Shown one piece after another: positions 1 through 32,343 of a DNA stretch of 37,840 nucleotides (within the stretch, counting starts at the first letter, position 1; every line of letters begins with the position of its first letter). Source of the DNA: a virus; the UHGV virus genome UHGV-0090851; one strand, written 5' to 3'. Made by a program: the position numbers and the translations under genes. Below the pieces are notes generated by a model. The model did no database searches and had not been told where the DNA came from. It saw only the letters and a program-made list of their open reading frames with translations.

Positions 1-49
1 CGCACAGGTTCCCACGTTTTATGGGAACCCGAAATAACGAGGTCGTGTA

Positions 50-1147
50 ATGGCGTACTATAACATAGAGAAACGACTAAAATCCGATGGCACACCACGC
101 TATCGCTGTAATGTGATTATCAAAGAAAAAGGTGTTATCACTTACAGGGAAAGCAAAACATTCCCTAAACATGCTCATGCCAAAACATGGGGCACACAGA
201 AAGTGATGGAATTAGATCTATATGGCATTCCATCATCAAATGCAGTTGACGGACTTACAGTCCGTGACTTACTACACAAATATTTAAATGACCCAAATGC
301 CGGAGGTAAAGCAGGCCGTACTAAAAGATATGTGCTGGAACTGCTTATGGATAGTGACATCTCCGCGATCAAACTATCTGAACTGACAGAAAATGACGTA
401 ATTGAACATTGCAGGCTAAGAAACAACGCTGGCGCAGGTCCAGCAACAGTCAGCCACGATGTTAGTTATCTTGGCAGTGTTCTGGATGCGGCCAAACCTG
501 TATACGGAATTAATTACACATCAAACCCGGCGAAAAGTGCTCGTCCATATCTACTTAAACTTGGTTTGATTGGTAAATCAAACCGTCGTAATCGTAGACC
601 AGCATCTGATGAACTGGACATGCTCATTGAAGGCCTTCAACAACGATCTACTCATAAATGCTCAAAAATTCCGTTCGTTGATATCCTCAAATTTTCTGTG
701 TGGTCCTGTATGCGAATCGGAGAAGTATGCCGGTTACGATGGGAAGATCTCGACCAGGAACAAAAATCTATACTCGTAAGAGACAGGAAAGATCCACGCA
801 AAAAGGAAGGCAACCACATGAAAGTAGCCTTGCTTGGGGAAGCCTGGGATATCGTCCAACGACAGCCCAAAAAATCGGAATTCATTTTTCCATATAACAG
901 CACTTCTATTACTGCGGGATTTCAGAGGGTAAGAAGCAAATTAGGTATTAAGGATCTGCGATACCATGATTTGCGTAGAGAAGGGGCAAGTCGCTTATTT
1001 GAGGCTGGTTTTAGTATTGAGGAAGTAGCCCAGGTTACAGGGCATCGTTCATTAAACGTGCTATGGCAGGTATATACCGAACTGTATCCGAAATCTTTAC
1101 ATAATCGTTTTGAAGAGCTCCAAAGGAGCAGAAATAAGACCCCTTGA
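50..1147 (+). CDS. Tyrosine recombinase / phage integrase
   Basis: 365 aa ORF with ATG at 50. C-terminal catalytic region HDLRREGASRLFEAGFSIEEVAQVTGHRSLNVLWQVYTELY fits the R..H..R..Y tyrosine recombinase signature. Confidence 0.88.
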   Translation: MAYYNIEKRLKSDGTPRYRCNVIIKEKGVITYRESKTFPKHAHAKTWGTQKVMELDLYGIPSSNAVDGLTVRDLLHKYLNDPNAGGKAGRTKRYVLELLMDSDISAIKLSELTENDVIEHCRLRNNAGAGPATVSHDVSYLGSVLDAAKPVYGINYTSNPAKSARPYLLKLGLIGKSNRRNRRPASDELDMLIEGLQQRSTHKCSKIPFVDILKFSVWSCMRIGEVCRLRWEDLDQEQKSILVRDRKDPRKKEGNHMKVALLGEAWDIVQRQPKKSEFIFPYNSTSITAGFQRVRSKLGIKDLRYHDLRREGASRLFEAGFSIEEVAQVTGHRSLNVLWQVYTELYPKSLHNRFEELQRSRNKTP

Positions 1148-1195
1148 CACTGTTTATCCATACAGTTAAAAATAATACTGTATACAAACACAGTA
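1144..1195 (+). promoter_or_regulatory. dinI promoter region with two tandem LexA (SOS) boxes
   Basis: TTGACA at 1144-1149. CTGT-N8-ACAG at 1150-1165 and a near-consensus 20-mer TACTGTATACAAACACAGTA at 1176-1195, 14 nt upstream of the dinI start. Confidence 0.65.
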
Positions 1196-1208
1196 TAGAG
1201 GGACTTTT

Positions 1209-1457
1209 ATGCGTATTGAAATCTGCATAGCCAAAGAAAAAATGACTAAAATGCCAACCGGTGCTGTGGATGCGTTAAAGGAAGAATTAACCCGACGCAT
1301 CAGTAAACGTTATGACGATGTAGAGGTGATCGTAAAAGCCACCAGCAACGATGGCCTTTCTGTTACACGCACCGCAGATAAGGATTCTGCAAAAACTTTT
1401 GTTCAGGAGACTCTGAAAGATACCTGGGAATCTGCTGACGAGTGGTTTGTTCACTAA
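1209..1457 (+). CDS. dinI: DinI-family DNA-damage-inducible protein
   Basis: 82 aa; MRIEICIAK...[33 protein letters not shown] matches the DinI/MsgA family; LexA boxes immediately upstream; ATG at 1209 with SD GAGGGA. Confidence 0.85.
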
Positions 1458-1600
1458 TTAACACGTAAAATCGGTAACGGCTGGAAATCATTCAATAATC
1501 GCACTATCGAAAGTTCGCCAGCCAGCCGCAGCACGTTCTTGCATACGACGTGGCTGCGGCTTCCAACATTAGACAAATAACTCTTTAAATTGCTTTTAAA

Positions 1601-1846
1601 TTATTTCGTTTGAATGCCAGTAACAGGAAATCGTTTATATAGGGTTGATATCCGATCTAACTTCCAGACAATCAACTCATCTCCACTTTTCATCACCGTA
1701 ATTAATTCCTTTAACACAGGGCGATTAGCTGTTCTGCCACTGGCATATTCTTCATAAATTCGCTCACAGCCAGCTGACTCAAGTGCAAGACGTTGCAACT
1801 CTGTATCCTGATGATTTGTTGATACACGAACATACCCGTAAATCAT
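1601..1846 (-). pseudogene. Truncated serine DNA invertase (Pin/Gin/Hin family), N-terminal remnant
   Basis: First ~65 aa (MIYGYVRVSTNHQDTELQRLALESAGCERIYEE...LIVWKLDR) match the invertase catalytic N-terminus including the active-site Ser motif, then the frame degenerates. Too little room before dinI (1457) for a full ~190 aa invertase. Confidence 0.7.
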
Positions 1847-1920
1847 GAGTGCTTCTCCTGTTGTAAAAACAGGAGAAGAGGCGAAATATCACCTGATTCA
1901 GAAAAATATTTCAAAGGTTC

Positions 1921-2415
1921 CTATGCTGGTTTTTCTGGCCACTCTGGCTTTGAGGTATCGACGCGCATCAGTAAGACCCGGTATTTTTTCCATTCTGACA
2001 AAGCGGCGGTTTCGTCTTCTGTCGCTATTCCCGCATCAACCGCATCCTGCCGCCATGCAATTTCAGAATCAGCTTTCAGCCTCAGGCTTGCCTTCATAGC
2101 CTCTGAATCAGCGATTAACTCGCTCTGCGATTTTTGATACTCGACCAGTTTTCCACCGATTAATCGCTGTTTATCTGTATCAATCGTTTCAGCATTAATC
2201 TCCACCACATAGAAGCCAGCAGGGTCAGGAAGGCTGGAAACATCGCGTGTAAACGCTGAAATACGGCCGTCATCGTCGTAGAGGATTTTTAGTGTATCTT
2301 CAGCAAAGTTATTCTGTTGCTCATACCAGTCGCCGTCTGCGTTTCTGGAATAGCTGACAGTGCCATATTTCAGATTATCTGGTGTGTAACGTTCAAATTT
2401 TTTACTGAGTGACAT
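1921..2415 (-). CDS. Tail fibre assembly protein (Tfa-like chaperone)
   Basis: 164 aa, directly downstream of the tail fibre gene with a 14-nt overlap; C-terminal region typical of Tfa proteins; ATG verified at 2413-2415. Confidence 0.75.
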
Positions 2416-3310
2416 TGACCCATGCTCCGTTAATGTAAGCCTGAAGAGTTGCGACTTTTACTTTGTTAAGTACCCACGCACCACCACCTGGCGTCGGGGT
2501 GATATAAATACCCACAACCATTTCACTAGTTGTGAAATTCATCCAGGCATCTGCAGTCGTAACAGTTACTTCTCGGGGCGCAGAAAGGCGCAATGCTGAA
2601 ACCGACTCGCCCGCCAGAGCCATTGTCCCTGCTTTATCTGGGATGATAATTGCCTTACCGTTAATCCCTGTAATGGTCGCCTGGTTGTTCGTGGAATAAA
2701 TACCAACACGGATAATATTATTGCTGTCCGTAACCTCTAATCCGTATCTGCATGAAAGTGCGTCAGATAATGATTGTTTCGTGCTGGCGTCCGTAATGAC
2801 GTAGTTTCCTTTCGGTTGCAATTTATCAATACCGAAAGCGGCTTTAACTCCATCAACAGTCGTTTGACCTGTCCCCCCTTGTGTGACAGGTAGAGCGATA
2901 GCGGCTCCGGTGTCGTTATTCCACATTCCCCAACTGGTGTTCGACACCAGGAGAAATTTTTTCAAATCAGGAGAGAAAATCTTCGTGGATACAGGGTCGG
3001 GTTTAATGGTCTGCAATCCAAGGTTTTCGAGAGCTGTTTTCACCGTGCCATCCGATTTGATATCGCCAAACGGATTCTTGCGGCTTAACAGCAGCGCGCG
3101 AAGTGCGGTAAGTAACTGGTCGTGCCGCCCCTTCTCCAGGCTGGCACCGGATGCCTCCACCACGCTGCAAAGTTCCTCCTGCAACATGTCAAAGTAGTCA
3201 TCATCCAGATCGGTGGCAGGCGTGCCGGTCTGGGGGTTACCACGGGTAAAACCGTTCTTACCCGCGCCGAACTTATCCTTCTGCGCGGTTTTCGTGTCTA
3301 TACGATGCAT
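2402..3310 (-). CDS. Tail fibre protein (short, receptor-binding part)
   Basis: 302 aa, Gly/Thr/Asn-rich C-terminus, placed between the baseplate gp48-like gene and Tfa; ATG verified at 3308-3310. Confidence 0.7.
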
Positions 3311-22742: not shown

Positions 22743-23795
22743 TTATTTCCCCACCAGTTCACTTACCTCTTTCACCGTCTGATTAAACCGCTCTGACTCA
22801 AGTTCAACACCTAACGCCCGACGCCCCAGCGCCATTGCTGCTTTTATTGTGGAACCGGATCCCATAAAGAAATCAGCAACCAGATCACCAGGTCGACTAC
22901 TGGCATTGATTATTTGCCGGAGCATATCCGTCGGTTTCTCGCACGGATGTTTACCCGGGTAGAACTGAACGGGCTTATGCGTCCAGACATCGGTATAAGG
23001 CACGGAGACTGATACGGAGAAATAGCGCCGGAGAGATTTAAACTCATCCAGCAATTCAGAATATTTGCGATTCAGTGAATCATAAGATGCCACCAGCTGG
23101 TGGTGTGGTTGTTCCAGTTGTTGTTCCTGAAACTTCTCTGCCGCTATACGGGAAAACAGTGCCTGTAACTTCCGATAGTCAGCCTCATTCGGCAACTGCC
23201 ACTGACTGGCACCAAACCAGTGGGAAACCATATTTTTCTTACCTGTGGCTTCGGCAATTTGTTTTGCCGTTATACCCAGTTCGGCACGAGCATCCCTGAA
23301 ATACGATATCAGCGGTGCCATTATGTGCTGTTTGAGTTCCCTTTCTTTTGCCGCATAGCCGTCACTTTTGCCGCGATATGGCCCCCGGTAATGTTCAGCA
23401 AACAGAACGCGCTCTGTGGCAGGAAAATATGCGCGCAGACTTTCTTTATTACACCCATTCCAACGTCCGGACGGCTTCGCCCAGATGATATGGTTAAGCA
23501 CGTTGAAACGTTCACGCATCATGATCTCAATATCAGATGCCAGGCGATGCCCACAGAACAGGTAAAGGCTTCCGGCAGGTTTCAACACCCGCCAGAACTG
23601 GGCCAGACAGTGGTCCAGCCACTTAAGGTAATCTTCGTCCCCTTTCCACTGATTGTCCCAACCGTTAGGTTTCACCTTGAAGTAAGGCGGATCGGTAACA
23701 ATCAGGTCAATGGAATCATCAGGCAGGGACTGAATAAAATGCAGGCAATCAGCGTTGATTAAATCAACACTGTTTATTTTTACAGTATTTTTCAT
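22743..23795 (-). CDS. DNA methyltransferase, beta-class (DPPY then FxGxG), probably N6-adenine
   Basis: 350 aa; DPPY motif near the N-terminus (LIVTDPPYF) and AdoMet-binding motif near the C-terminus (DFFMGSGST); ATG verified; no adjacent restriction endonuclease. Confidence 0.85.
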   Translation of the reverse strand: MKNTVKINSVDLINADCLHFIQSLPDDSIDLIVTDPPYFKVKPNGWDNQWKGDEDYLKWLDHCLAQFWRVLKPAGSLYLFCGHRLASDIEIMMRERFNVLNHIIWAKPSGRWNGCNKESLRAYFPATERVLFAEHYRGPYRGKSDGYAAKERELKQHIMAPLISYFRDARAELGITAKQIAEATGKKNMVSHWFGASQWQLPNEADYRKLQALFSRIAAEKFQEQQLEQPHHQLVASYDSLNRKYSELLDEFKSLRRYFSVSVSVPYTDVWTHKPVQFYPGKHPCEKPTDMLRQIINASSRPGDLVADFFMGSGSTIKAAMALGRRALGVELESERFNQTVKEVSELVGK

Positions 23796-24401: not shown

Positions 24402-25154
24402 TTATCTTGTCACTTTTCTCAATTGTGTCTCTGCATATGCTTCTTCCTGCCAGCACTTTGTAACCAGTTTATCAATGACATCTGCATATCCTTTGTACCA
24501 CTGATAATCCGTCAGATCCGGTACCAGCTTCTGGACATGATGCCGCGCCAGTGTGGTTGGTAAACGGCTAAACCGGTTTCCATTGCAACGCCCACAAACC
24601 TTATAAACAGGCGCACCATGAAGCCGGGTTCTTTTTTCATCCAGGACAATACCTTTACCCTTACACCCTCTGCACGCTGTGCTGACTTCTCCCTTACCAT
24701 GACAATGCTGACATAGTTCCTTCACCCACTCTTCCTTGATAACAGATTCCCCGCTTCTGGAGTGTTTCACCACTTCGCGCAATACATTATGAAATCCAGT
24801 ACCAGCACAATGCTCACAGCGAGCCTTACTTGCCGCAGACCTGGAATAATCAGCAAAGGCAAAATTCACAAGGTAAGGAATAATCTGTAGCCGGGTTTCT
24901 TCACTCAATTTATTCAATGTCGGGTTATCCAGTGCCATCGCGTAATTGAGCAGACCTTCAATCGCAAACTGAGGATCCTGAACACCAACTTTTGCCAGGA
25001 ATAAGGCAAACCCAAGCGGTGCTTTCGACTGCACCATCCCCTGCGCAGCCATCACATCCGTAATTGTTAAACCACCAGAGCCTGTCGCCGGTGCGTCATC
25101 GCTCAATTTTGGAGATTTTGGGGAGTAATATTTCGGTAAGGCTTCAAGGTTCAT
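24402..25154 (-). CDS. Late-gene antiterminator Q-like protein
   Basis: Several CxxC zinc-ribbon motifs; position immediately upstream of pR'/tR' and the lysis cassette. Start preferred at ATG 25152-25154 (SD GGAGA) over the table's GTG at 25181. Confidence 0.7.
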   Translation of the reverse strand: MNLEALPKYYSPKSPKLSDDAPATGSGGLTITDVMAAQGMVQSKAPLGFALFLAKVGVQDPQFAIEGLLNYAMALDNPTLNKLSEETRLQIIPYLVNFAFADYSRSAASKARCEHCAGTGFHNVLREVVKHSRSGESVIKEEWVKELCQHCHGKGEVSTACRGCKGKGIVLDEKRTRLHGAPVYKVCGRCNGNRFSRLPTTLARHHVQKLVPDLTDYQWYKGYADVIDKLVTKCWQEEAYAETQLRKVTR

Positions 25155-25167
25155 GCTCGTTCTCCAC

Positions 25168-26163
25168 TTACGCCAGTACACCTATTGCCAGCGCACGATC
25201 GATAAAACGAAATATCAGCTCCAGCTGGGAGCCATACTTCTCTTCAAATGCCACGGTATCCGCATGCAGCTCGTCGTGATGCTTTCTGCACAAAGGCAAC
25301 ACAAAAAGGTCATGCGCTTTTGTTCCCATTCCACCCTGACCGTGACCTATCAGGTGGTGGGGATCATCAGCGGGCTTTCCACAACATGCACACGGCTGTG
25401 TCTTAACCCAGCGCGTGTACTTTTCATTAACCCAGCGGCGACGTTTTGGGCGTAACATAAAAGACTCCGGCGACTCCGGATCCACTTTCAGCGCCAGCAC
25501 CTTTTTCGCCTTATCCTGGATGATGCTGGTGGCAGGAACCGAAGGCACAAGGTCACTTTCCCGGGTGACAGACGGCACAACAGGCTTCGGTAATCTCAGT
25601 GCCTTACGGGCTGCACTTTCCGGTAAGGCGTCCGCCAGGTCATTACGAATCAGCCACCAGCACAGTTCCGGCATTGTCACAACGTGACTGTCATCAAAAC
25701 CGAGATCCCGACGCACAACAGACAACACCCAGCGGGCACAGTTATCCGTTGCCATTGATTCCAGCCGTTCCGTGAACTGATCGCGCAGCTGGTTATCGCA
25801 GTGCCAGCACAGACGGATTGCGCCCGGAGCGTGTCGCATTGTTGTCATGTTCTCGCTGTGCCAGTCGGAATGAAGCCACTGGCAGCCTTTTTCACGAAGT
25901 AACCAGCTTTCAAGACATTCCACGCCACCAGCACGACGGATCACTGCCTCATTGCGGAACACGGCCCGAACGGCAGGATCATCCGCCAGCGGTTGTGATG
26001 CCGCGGGAACGGCACCACTGGCGAAAGATGAATAACGTTCCGGCTCAGGCTCCAGCAGGACACGCCCCTGCATAAACAAGGGCATCAGCTCTGAACCTGG
26101 CCTGAACAATACGATCCCCATACGCGGGGCAATTTCAGGGGTCAGTAGTGCTCTCACGGTCAC
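25168..26163 (-). CDS. Conserved lambdoid nin-region protein (DUF968-like, C-terminal Cys/His cluster)
   Basis: 331 aa; CACCGK...HH...H cluster; GTG start; family name from memory only. Confidence 0.5.
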   Translation of the reverse strand: MTVRALLTPEIAPRMGIVLFRPGSELMPLFMQGRVLLEPEPERYSSFASGAVPAASQPLADDPAVRAVFRNEAVIRRAGGVECLESWLLREKGCQWLHSDWHSENMTTMRHAPGAIRLCWHCDNQLRDQFTERLESMATDNCARWVLSVVRRDLGFDDSHVVTMPELCWWLIRNDLADALPESAARKALRLPKPVVPSVTRESDLVPSVPATSIIQDKAKKVLALKVDPESPESFMLRPKRRRWVNEKYTRWVKTQPCACCGKPADDPHHLIGHGQGGMGTKAHDLFVLPLCRKHHDELHADTVAFEEKYGSQLELIFRFIDRALAIGVLA

Positions 26164-30988: not shown

Positions 30989-31085
30989 ATAACCTCCACA
31001 TATTGCGTGATGAGCATATTATTTCACGCAAATATTTTGCGCAAGTTGATTTGCTTAACGCGCAATAAAGAAATGTAATAAACGC
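30989..31085. promoter_or_regulatory. Immunity switch region: divergent pR / pRM candidates and operators
   Basis: Palindrome TTGCGTGA-N13-TCACGCAA (31003-31031), TTGCGCAA (31037-31044), TTGC-N7-GCAA (31051-31065). Minus-strand promoter TTGCGC-17-TAATAT for cro; plus-strand TTGCTT-17-TGTAAT ending about 6 nt before the cI ATG. Confidence 0.5.
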
Positions 31086-31778
31086 ATGAACATAGGAAAT
31101 CGAGTCAGACAACTTCGCCAGGCGAAGAACATGAAAATCGCCGATCTCGCTGAAGCAATAGGAGTGGATGCGGCGAATATCTCGCGCCTCGAAACAGGTA
31201 AGCAGAAACAATTCACTGAACAAGCCCTGAGTAATATTGCCAGGAGCTTAGGTGTTGATATTGCTGATCTCTTTACCTCAGACCTCAAAAGTAATACTGT
31301 ATGTAAAAACAGTATTAGTGAGGATGTTGCGCAGGTGAAGGATGTATTCCGTATTGAAATGCTGGATGTCAGTGCCAGTGCGGGAAATGGCCTTATCCAG
31401 GGCGGTGATGTCATTGATGTGATTCATGCCATTGAATACAGAACTGATAATGCTGTATCGATGTTTGGTGGACGACCAGCAAATCACATTAAAGTTATCA
31501 ACGTTCGTGGGGACAGTATGTGTCCAACCATTGAGCCAGGAGATCTCATCTTCGTTGATATCAGTATCAATCAGTTTGATGGGGATGGTATATATGTATT
31601 TGGTTTTGATGATAAAATTTACGTCAAACGACTGCAAATGATACCTGATAAACTGCTGGTAATTTCTGATAATCAGATTTACCGCGAATGGGGAATTACC
31701 AGCGAAAACGAACACCGGTTTATGGTCTTTGGAAAGGTCTTAATCAGTCAGTCACAAACCCTTAAGCGACACAATTAA
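31086..31778 (+). CDS. CI-type phage repressor (HTH plus S24 LexA-like peptidase domain)
   Basis: 230 aa; N-terminal HTH (VRQLRQAKNMKIADLAEAIGVDAANISRLETG) and C-terminal autocleavage domain (VRGDSMCPTIEPGDLIFVD...VKRL). Confidence 0.9.
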   Translation: MNIGNRVRQLRQAKNMKIADLAEAIGVDAANISRLETGKQKQFTEQALSNIARSLGVDIADLFTSDLKSNTVCKNSISEDVAQVKDVFRIEMLDVSASAGNGLIQGGDVIDVIHAIEYRTDNAVSMFGGRPANHIKVINVRGDSMCPTIEPGDLIFVDISINQFDGDGIYVFGFDDKIYVKRLQMIPDKLLVISDNQIYREWGITSENEHRFMVFGKVLISQSQTLKRHN

Positions 31779-31824: not shown

Positions 31825-31834
31825 ACTCACGCTA

Positions 31835-31872
31835 TTGCATATCTCGCAATAAAATACTTGCACGTTACGCAA
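31835..31872. promoter_or_regulatory. oL-like operator pair
   Basis: TTGCATATCTCGCAA (31835-31849) and TTGCACGTTACGCAA (31858-31872), same TTGC-N7-GCAA architecture as the site at 31051-31065. Confidence 0.45.
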
Positions 31873-32343
31873 TTTCATTTTATCTTTCTTTCCAGACCAA
31901 CAAACAAGGTCCTGACAAAATTTGGTTGTAACACGGCGTATGGCACATGCGTCGTTAGCGGTCTGGGGACGTTAAAGGGGACAATCCACTCCTTGCTCGG
32001 GCAAACAAACCAGGTAGCCGGAATGTGCAAGTCAATGATGATGCTGATAAGACGCCTAACCAGCGCGGCGATCCGGTTTGACGCCTGGGAAGAGACCAGG
32101 GTGCAACGATGAGGGCATTTATGGAACCGCGACAAAGTGTGGTGCCGTAACTGGCTAAGTGCTCTCAGCGTTGTGGTAATCCGCGAAATGGCGCGGCGGT
32201 AAGTATGGCGGGGTTACTCTTTCCCCGTTGAGGACACCGGATTGTCAGGTTGACCATACGCCTGAGTGACAACCCCACCACAACAGCCACTGCTTTGGCG
32301 GTGCCAGTTTGTACACTTGCTTCCGGCTGGTACCGCTCTTTTT

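Follow-up and report, generated by a model that had tools for sequence, protein, structure and literature searches.

DinI of Escherichia coli is a LexA-regulated modulator that binds RecA filaments. A dinI-like gene also lies near one end of the prophage genome considered here (UHGV-0090851), of which the whole analysed stretch, 37,840 nucleotides long, is called the window below. Upstream of this gene are two palindromes that resemble LexA sites, and the locus thus raises the question of whether both act as operators on a single promoter, and of what a prophage would keep silent in this way. The answer to which the evidence points, with a probability that we put at about 0.85, is that the gene is an accessory gene (a moron) silenced by LexA, which would be freed upon DNA damage and whose product would bind RecA filaments. 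The features on which the argument draws are the following, with positions counted in the window and HI being the LexA-site score described below.

50-1147, plus strand: tyrosine integrase gene (open reading frame call and Pfam Phage_integrase, E 1.6e-20).
1144-1149, plus strand: TTGACA, the -35 hexamer and at the same time the left edge of the mobile dinI cassette (sequence and promoter scan).
1148-1167, no strand assigned: LexA box 1, CACTGTTTATCCATACAGTT, with its core at 1150-1165, filling the spacer between -35 and -10 (HI 7.20).
1167-1173, plus strand: predicted -10 region, in the AT-rich gap between the LexA boxes (promoter scan).
1176-1195, no strand assigned: LexA box 2, TACTGTATACAAACACAGTA, with its core at 1178-1193 (HI 5.22; three mismatches to the 20-nt consensus).
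1198-1203, plus strand: Shine-Dalgarno sequence GAGGGA, 5 nt before the ATG (read from the sequence).
1209-1457, plus strand: DinI-like gene of 82 amino acids (open reading frame and Pfam DinI, E 1.1e-19).
1524-1561, plus strand: GC-rich 14-bp hairpin with no U tract, at which the cassette probably ends (fold).

A preliminary description of this DNA had pointed to a near-consensus SOS box at 1176-1195 and to a second CTGT-N8-ACAG site at 1150-1165, and both were found there base for base. The core of box 1 reads CTGTTTATCCATACAG, and each of the two boxes is an exact CTGT-N8-ACAG with an AT-rich spacer. The HI matrix used for scoring was obtained by regression on 140 pairs of 20-mers and HI values from E. 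coli K-12 (Table S1 of PMC12527982); it is additive and palindromic, was recovered exactly (rmse 1e-5), and reproduces the published HI of recA (4.31), sulA (4.65), umuDC (2.77), uvrB (6.11), and chromosomal dinI (6.24). Validated E. coli operators range from 2.8 to 12.8 on this scale. A working limit of 15 has been used for LexA binding (PMC11002266), and the range taken here as LexA-binding was below about 12.6-15. When the matrix check that the same description had proposed was run, box 1 scored 7.20, a value comparable to those of the uvrA and lexA operators, and box 2 scored 5.22, so that neither score is a poor one and both sites are supported, by score, as good LexA operators.

The background of the window leads in the same direction. 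HI scores are bimodal, with four sites between 3.3 and 7.2 and the next-best CTG-N10-CAG site at 17.1, and none of 300 Markov-shuffled windows contained a site with an HI of 7.5 or less, versus four such sites in the real one. For the CTGT-N8-ACAG motif, the four occurrences in the 37.8-kb window compare with an expectation of 0.44, and no shuffle out of 100 reached that number; for the LexA consensus with at most three mismatches, two occurrences were counted where 0.00 were expected. These figures bear on the idea that the palindromes have nothing to do with LexA and are either targets of a regulator encoded by the phage or inverted repeats that arose by chance. A 16-bp palindrome could in principle be used by any dimeric helix-turn-helix (HTH) protein; however, the arms are exactly the CTGT/ACAG of LexA and enclose 8-nt AT-rich spacers, the cro-cI operators of the phage itself are of another type (TTGCG...CGCAA repeats), the boxes are kept across unrelated phage backgrounds as well as in non-phage contexts beside bacteriocin genes, and the chance expectation for such sites is about zero. 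We regard this idea as scarcely credible.

With regard to the promoter itself, a consensus scan called TTGACA-18-AAAAAT at 1144-1173 with 10 of 12 matches. The -10 can be read either as TAAAAA with a 17-nt spacer or as AAAAAT with an 18-nt spacer, and it is weak in itself (4/6 matches). In the near-identical phage mEp460, a promoter is annotated on the equivalent bases, which correspond to 1144-1172 of the window. The two boxes bracket the -10 of this predicted TTGACA-17/18-TAAAAA(T) promoter, with 8 nt between the 20-mers. It had been stated beforehand that both sites overlap the TTGACA promoter upstream of dinI, and this holds, with box 1 located in the spacer and box 2 just past the predicted -10: the latter begins 3-4 nt after it and extends over the predicted transcription start and the early leader.

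The integrase stop codon and the -35 do overlap, as likewise described earlier, the TGA at 1145-1147 being enclosed in the hexamer. This overlap is a module junction and implies no regulatory link to int, because 25 related loci found by blastn begin their similarity at 1141-1144, with unrelated DNA upstream. The integrase gene is therefore a neighbor of the dinI cassette and no part of it. Within the prophage it occupies the end proximal to dusA, and in E. coli VG888-46E9 the same integrase gene is divergent from dusA. Control of the integrase by LexA was considered separately and ruled out, as there is no low-HI LexA site upstream of int.

The conservation of the two-box arrangement was examined in homologous loci, which were collected from contigs with one genome per species and by exact-protein look-ups, scanning 130 nt upstream of the start codons; 21 dereplicated promoters were aligned. 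The scan of genome contigs yielded 17 loci and that of viral contigs yielded only copies that are 99-100% identical, so that the diversity sampled comes from few loci together with three exact-protein look-ups. The layout TTGACA, box 1, AT-rich -10, box 2, Shine-Dalgarno, and ATG was found in 19 of the 21 diverged loci. These 19 come from Escherichia/Shigella, Stx-type E. coli, Salmonella, Pantoea, Trabulsiella, Mixta, and Erwinia, and the layout is kept in six genera, down to 58% protein identity. Box 2 is present in 21/21, and two loci from metagenome-assembled genomes (MAGs) have box 2 only; some lineages can thus dispense with box 1.

In the alignment, TTGACA is the first conserved column and the DNA on the 5' side of the hexamer is unrelated, and in these loci dS is above 1. 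Where box 1 is present, it always abuts the -35 (TTGACA followed by CTG-N10-CAG). In every homologue an AT-rich gap of 8-13 nt with the -10 follows it, and box 2 stands 13-17 nt from the start codon, a distance that includes the Shine-Dalgarno, at whose place the homologues have a purine-rich block. In each of the two boxes the CTG/CAG arms persist while the interior varies, and this combination of constant arms and variable interior is the signature of selection for LexA binding. The centre-to-centre spacing of the boxes ranges from 24 to 29 bp among homologues, a spread that precludes any claim of fixed helical phasing or cooperativity, and each box seems to be placed relative to the promoter elements and not relative to the other box. 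On a shorter evolutionary scale, 57 near-identical viral contigs representing 19 sequence variants leave the CTGT/ACAG cores untouched in all cases, with an HI of 4.9-8.3 for box 1 and of 5.2-7.5 for box 2.

The closest documented relative of the cassette is found in the Stx1 phage VT1-Sakai, whose H0001 (dinI) belongs to the same 82-aa clade, is 95% identical, and has the same TTGACA promoter. In its record (AP000400), a promoter "of H0001 and H0002" is annotated together with a "putative SOS box" at the position of box 2. The equivalent of box 1 lies unannotated inside the annotated promoter with an HI of 11.4, and the equivalent of box 2 has an HI of 9.5, so that the operators described here (7.2 and 5.2) are much nearer to the consensus. 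In VT1-Sakai, as in cdtI, mEp460, and BP-4795, the dinI-like gene is situated at the end of an Stx or lambdoid prophage, convergent with tail-fibre genes, as it is here. The two phages differ in what surrounds it: here the cassette abuts a dusA-type integrase gene and is followed by no H0002-like gene, whereas in VT1-Sakai it is next to an att site.

It could be argued from this comparison that box 2 is the sole working LexA operator and that box 1 is a promoter spacer resembling a LexA site, given that the box 2 equivalent alone is annotated in VT1-Sakai, that box 1 is weak in the Stx-type copies, and that the two MAG loci do without it. In the prophage studied here, however, box 1 has a score on a par with that of established operators, and in 19/21 loci its CTG/CAG arms are kept while the 10 nt between them vary freely, which is the pattern of a LexA site and not that of a spacer. 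We consider a single working operator improbable, and the reading with two operators is retained in what follows.

The product of the gene belongs to the DinI family, as had been proposed. Its match to Pfam PF06183 (70.9 bits versus a cut-off of 24.2) runs over residues 16-80 and covers profile positions 1-63 of 63, and its residues 1-81 align with residues 1-79 of the E. coli DinI structure 1GHH (E 3.7e-13; 7YWA has the same sequence). It also matches PHROG 189, "RecA filament binding protein DinI" (E 5.7e-31). The acidic C-terminal helix (TWESADDWFV in E. coli DinI; pattern TWESADxWFV) is conserved, and residues W73, E74, A76, D77, W79, and F80 are invariant in 14 members of the clade. Comparisons with homologues at which synonymous sites are saturated (dS > 1) give dN/dS values of 0.09-0.19, which indicates purifying selection. 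By homology to 1GHH/7YWA, we infer that the 82-aa protein binds RecA filaments and modulates the coprotease. The clade is widespread in Enterobacterales prophages, with 282 protein clusters at E <= 1e-5, and occurs in 133 phage records, many of which are from Stx-converting phages. No experiments on this 82-aa clade were found in the literature searched, in which the papers on EHEC concern chromosomal dinI.

Chromosomal DinI of E. coli (b1061) shares its fold family, its length, and its acidic C-terminal helix with the phage protein, the similarity of the two proteins being only moderate (52 bits). Its gene in K-12 has a single operator (HI 6.24) over the -10 TATAAA of a TTGTCA promoter. Homology of the cassette promoter to the chromosomal one was ruled out, given the one box and the different promoter in K-12.

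Downstream of the gene, the region 1455-1600 folds at -35.8 kcal/mol (z -2.96) and contains the GC-rich hairpin, which is stable. The right ends of the blastn matches cluster at 1551-1563, just past this structure, which is probably a terminator or an RNA-end structure that marks the 3' end of the cassette. A consensus scan for intrinsic terminators over 1000-1950 called none, the hairpin being seen by folding only, and an Rfam scan of the whole window returned no family, so that 1458-1600 corresponds to no known sRNA. Elsewhere, the neighbors of the cassette are integrases, att sites, host genes, or bacteriocin genes, although its usual place is at a prophage end, convergent with tail-fibre genes. 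Here its carrier is a lambdoid prophage of E. coli that sits at dusA and whose integrase gene is oriented divergently from that gene. From these boundaries, the segment 1144 to about 1562 would be a self-contained accessory cassette, or moron, made of a sigma-70 promoter, a gene, and a hairpin, and portable as a whole.

Such a description has to be weighed against the best-studied prophage dinI genes. [quoted passage not shown] 2011, PMC3121763). Nalidixic acid induces them 4.6-23-fold, and they have a single box with an HI of 3.9-5.3 (PMC8072944). The likeness to the present locus lies in a prophage DinI homologue placed directly behind a LexA-repressed promoter that is preceded by a terminator. 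A related arrangement is known from coliphage 186, in which Tum combines an antirepressor with a DinI-like half (PMC3121763), and from the split tum/dinI of PSP3 and Fels-2; all of these are LexA-controlled and carry a DinI-like module of the same PHROG 189.

By analogy, the promoter here might serve mainly an antirepressor that is co-transcribed with dinI and inactivates the prophage repressor, and the fact that the 82-aa protein covers only positions 71-149 of the 151-position PHROG 189 profile could be taken in this sense. What it lacks, however, is the N-terminal antirepressor half of 186 Tum, and no candidate for a separate antirepressor was seen: the frame after the dinI stop has no start codon, there is no plus-strand open reading frame of at least 30 aa between dinI and the convergent invertase and tail-fibre genes, and the cassette ends at the hairpin. 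Moreover, in Gifsy the small antirepressor that follows dinI drives the induction of a phage with a non-cleavable repressor, whereas CI of the present prophage has a lambda-type HTH domain and a Peptidase_S24 domain (E 5.9e-19) and can presumably cleave itself. Gifsy-2 DinI is also only 42.5% identical, and its gene lies in the early (nin) region with one box over the -10 (HI 5.26). An induction module of the Gifsy/186 type is thus very improbable at this locus, and the self-contained dinI cassette is the reading pursued below.

Several LexA sites on one promoter, as found here, are also a property of lexA, recN, and colicin promoters, at which, in contrast, the boxes overlap or lie downstream of the promoter and are not split by the -10. 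Three LexA boxes have been described for Salmonella recN and two for lexA (PMC8072944), and the two overlapping LexA boxes of colicin genes hold their basal expression at an undetectable level (PMC2994835).

In the mechanism that we propose on this basis, the cassette is most likely silent until LexA is cleaved. In the undamaged lysogen, one LexA dimer would occupy box 1, between the -35 and the -10, and a second dimer would occupy box 2, over the predicted start site, the pair excluding RNA polymerase. Upon DNA damage, activated RecA would promote the self-cleavage of LexA, both operators would be emptied, and dinI would be transcribed. With two good operators, basal expression should be very low, and the switch should be later and steeper than that of the single-box chromosomal dinI. 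The DinI-like protein would then bind RecA filaments via its acidic C-terminal helix and tune RecA-dependent cleavage reactions. Possible benefits include a damping of CI cleavage, which would guard against abortive induction, a limitation of UmuD processing, and a better survival of the host. Any such role of the phage DinI is putative, since induction was not detectably altered when the Gifsy dinI homologues were removed by non-polar deletion (PMC3121763).

The two remaining low-HI sites of the window lie inside genes. One of them (31295-31314, HI 3.31) is located in the linker-coding part of cI, over codons 70-77. The diverged cI alleles of SfII, Stx2a_1447, ST64B sb38, and two Klebsiella phages (69% DNA identity) all have the box at nt 210-229 of the coding sequence, and in a motif scan of viral contigs 82/82 full-length unique cI alleles carried it, with an HI of 1.4-6.0. 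Among 17 representatives with less than 92% identity, the linker around the box is hypervariable, and yet codons 71, 72, and 76 are ACT, GTA, and AGT in 17/17, and codons 70 and 75 read NNT and NAC throughout, across four amino acids each, while neighboring Ser, Leu, and Asp codons vary. This pattern of codon use reflects selection on the DNA and not on the protein. No consensus promoter was called at the cI-internal box. An antisense promoter at this place (TTCACC-17-AATACT) was rejected, its spacing not being conserved, and the evidence speaks neither for nor against a CTD-only CI product made from an internal start. The svsR sRNA reported "within cI" (PMC12803456) is unrelated, as it concerns the 3' end of another prophage's cI. 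In the literature searched, we found no paper describing a LexA box inside cI.

The other site (23768-23787, HI 6.84) extends over codons 3-9 of the first late-region gene, which lies downstream of Q and encodes a DNA methylase. An 80%-identical homologue from an Stx phage retains this site (HI 5.5), and a 55%-identical Enterobacter phage lacks it.

A broader scheme can be drawn, which we regard as doubtful: the dinI cassette could belong to a larger LexA circuit that includes the operators at 31295-31314 and 23768-23787, so that a single event, the cleavage of LexA, would change the synthesis of the repressor, the transcription of the late region, and, via the DinI-like protein, RecA* activity. 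DinI would then be no passenger, and would act as a timer or threshold-setter for the RecA-stimulated self-cleavage of CI.

That a prophage dinI can be under LexA control was already known from the SOS box annotation of VT1-Sakai and from the Gifsy experiments; what is new here is only the second operator and its conservation. To our knowledge, the lambda paradigm includes no direct action of LexA on an immunity gene. If the cI-internal operator is functional, LexA would act directly on the immunity gene of a phage with a self-cleaving repressor, and this more surprising by-product of the analysis would then matter more than the dinI cassette.

For the phages concerned, the cassette adds a well-supported and probably tightly repressed SOS gene to the widespread mEp460/SKA5-like prophages and to the relatives of Stx phages, and the 82-aa DinI clade travels as a portable unit together with a two-operator promoter of its own. 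A prophage DinI-like gene has been flagged, in a comparative study, among the elements that precede the acquisition of quinolone resistance (bioRxiv 10.1101/2023.06.20.545734). More generally, an additional SOS-induced DinI could damp or reshape the RecA-dependent induction of prophages, including that of Shiga-toxin phages, as well as SOS mutagenesis and survival under quinolones.

Four sites in the window have a low heterology index (HI), the mark of a good LexA operator. Two of them lie at the promoter of the dinI-like gene near one prophage end, and the other two are intragenic:

31295-31314, within the cI-like ORF 31086-31778 (plus strand): near-consensus LexA box TACTGTATGTAAAAACAGTA, HI 3.31
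23768-23787, codons 3-9 of the DNA methylase ORF 22743-23795 (minus strand): LexA box CACTGTTTATTTTTACAGTA, HI 6.84, the fourth low-HI site

The first of these intragenic boxes falls in the linker-coding region of a repressor gene of the HTH + S24 type, and a LexA box occupies the identical position of the coding sequence (nt 210-229) in the cI alleles of SfII, Stx2a_1447, ST64B, and Klebsiella phages. More generally, each of the 82 unique full-length alleles taken from viral contigs has such a box, at HI 1.4-6.0, its CTGT and ACAG ends kept by fixed synonymous, and even amino-acid-changing, positions in a linker that is hypervariable on either side. Promoter prediction called none at this box, and our literature search on a cI-internal LexA box found no description of it. 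Repeated palindromes of the TTGCG...CGCAA type, clearly unlike LexA boxes, flank cI on both sides (window 31000-31085 and 31830-31880) and presumably represent this immunity type's OR and OL operators.

The Q antiterminator gene lies at 24402-25181, and the methylase ORF is downstream of it. On the plus strand, the methylase box is flanked by TCAACA and TATTTT, an arrangement that resembles the dinI promoter, but no promoter passed the scan at this site. The box is retained (HI 5.5) in the 80%-identical methylase of an Stx2 phage and is absent from the 55%-identical methylase of an Enterobacter phage.

The cassette formed by the dinI-like gene and its two-box promoter also occurs in other settings, among them seven Salmonella enterica loci:

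3001-3249 (L101-L104, L106-L108): dinI-like gene

There, the cassette stands outside any obvious prophage and is followed, after about 370 bp, by bacteriocin and immunity genes of the S-type pyocin/cloacin-like kind. An additional LexA-like sequence, TGCTGTATATACATCCACCA, is found about 315 nt past dinI. Cassettes of the enterobacterial type (68-72% identical) were also seen on two contigs assigned to unrelated phyla, one titled Chryseobacterium sp. (L087) and the other a MAG titled Candidatus Saccharibacteria (L091), which probably reflects contamination or mis-binning.

The window retains the dusA-side prophage end, followed by an invertase remnant:

1-49: DNA upstream of int
50-1147: int
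1601-1846 (minus strand): remnant of a Pin/Hin-type DNA invertase, N-terminal 81 aa only, Resolvase domain

A 100%-identical E. coli chromosome has dusA and int in divergent orientation, with the start of dusA 88 bp upstream of int, and a short dusA-like fragment adjoins int in phage SKA5. The prophage is integrated at dusA, a placement that would fit the dusA-specific integrase family. Among 80 viral contigs from IMG/VR (L003-L082), 24 records include fewer than 70 nt ahead of the dinI start codon, which indicates that prophage-boundary callers often cut at the cassette; such cuts are consistent with its position at a prophage end.

Unlike the window, the close relatives SKA5 and E. coli VG888-46E9 carry an intact invertase gene (about 187 aa, 564 nt) together with an invertible tail-fibre segment. 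Against window 1-2000, these relatives match in two separate pieces and extend over about 320 bp of extra DNA. The window therefore has a deletion, which should leave the orientation of the tail fibre frozen.
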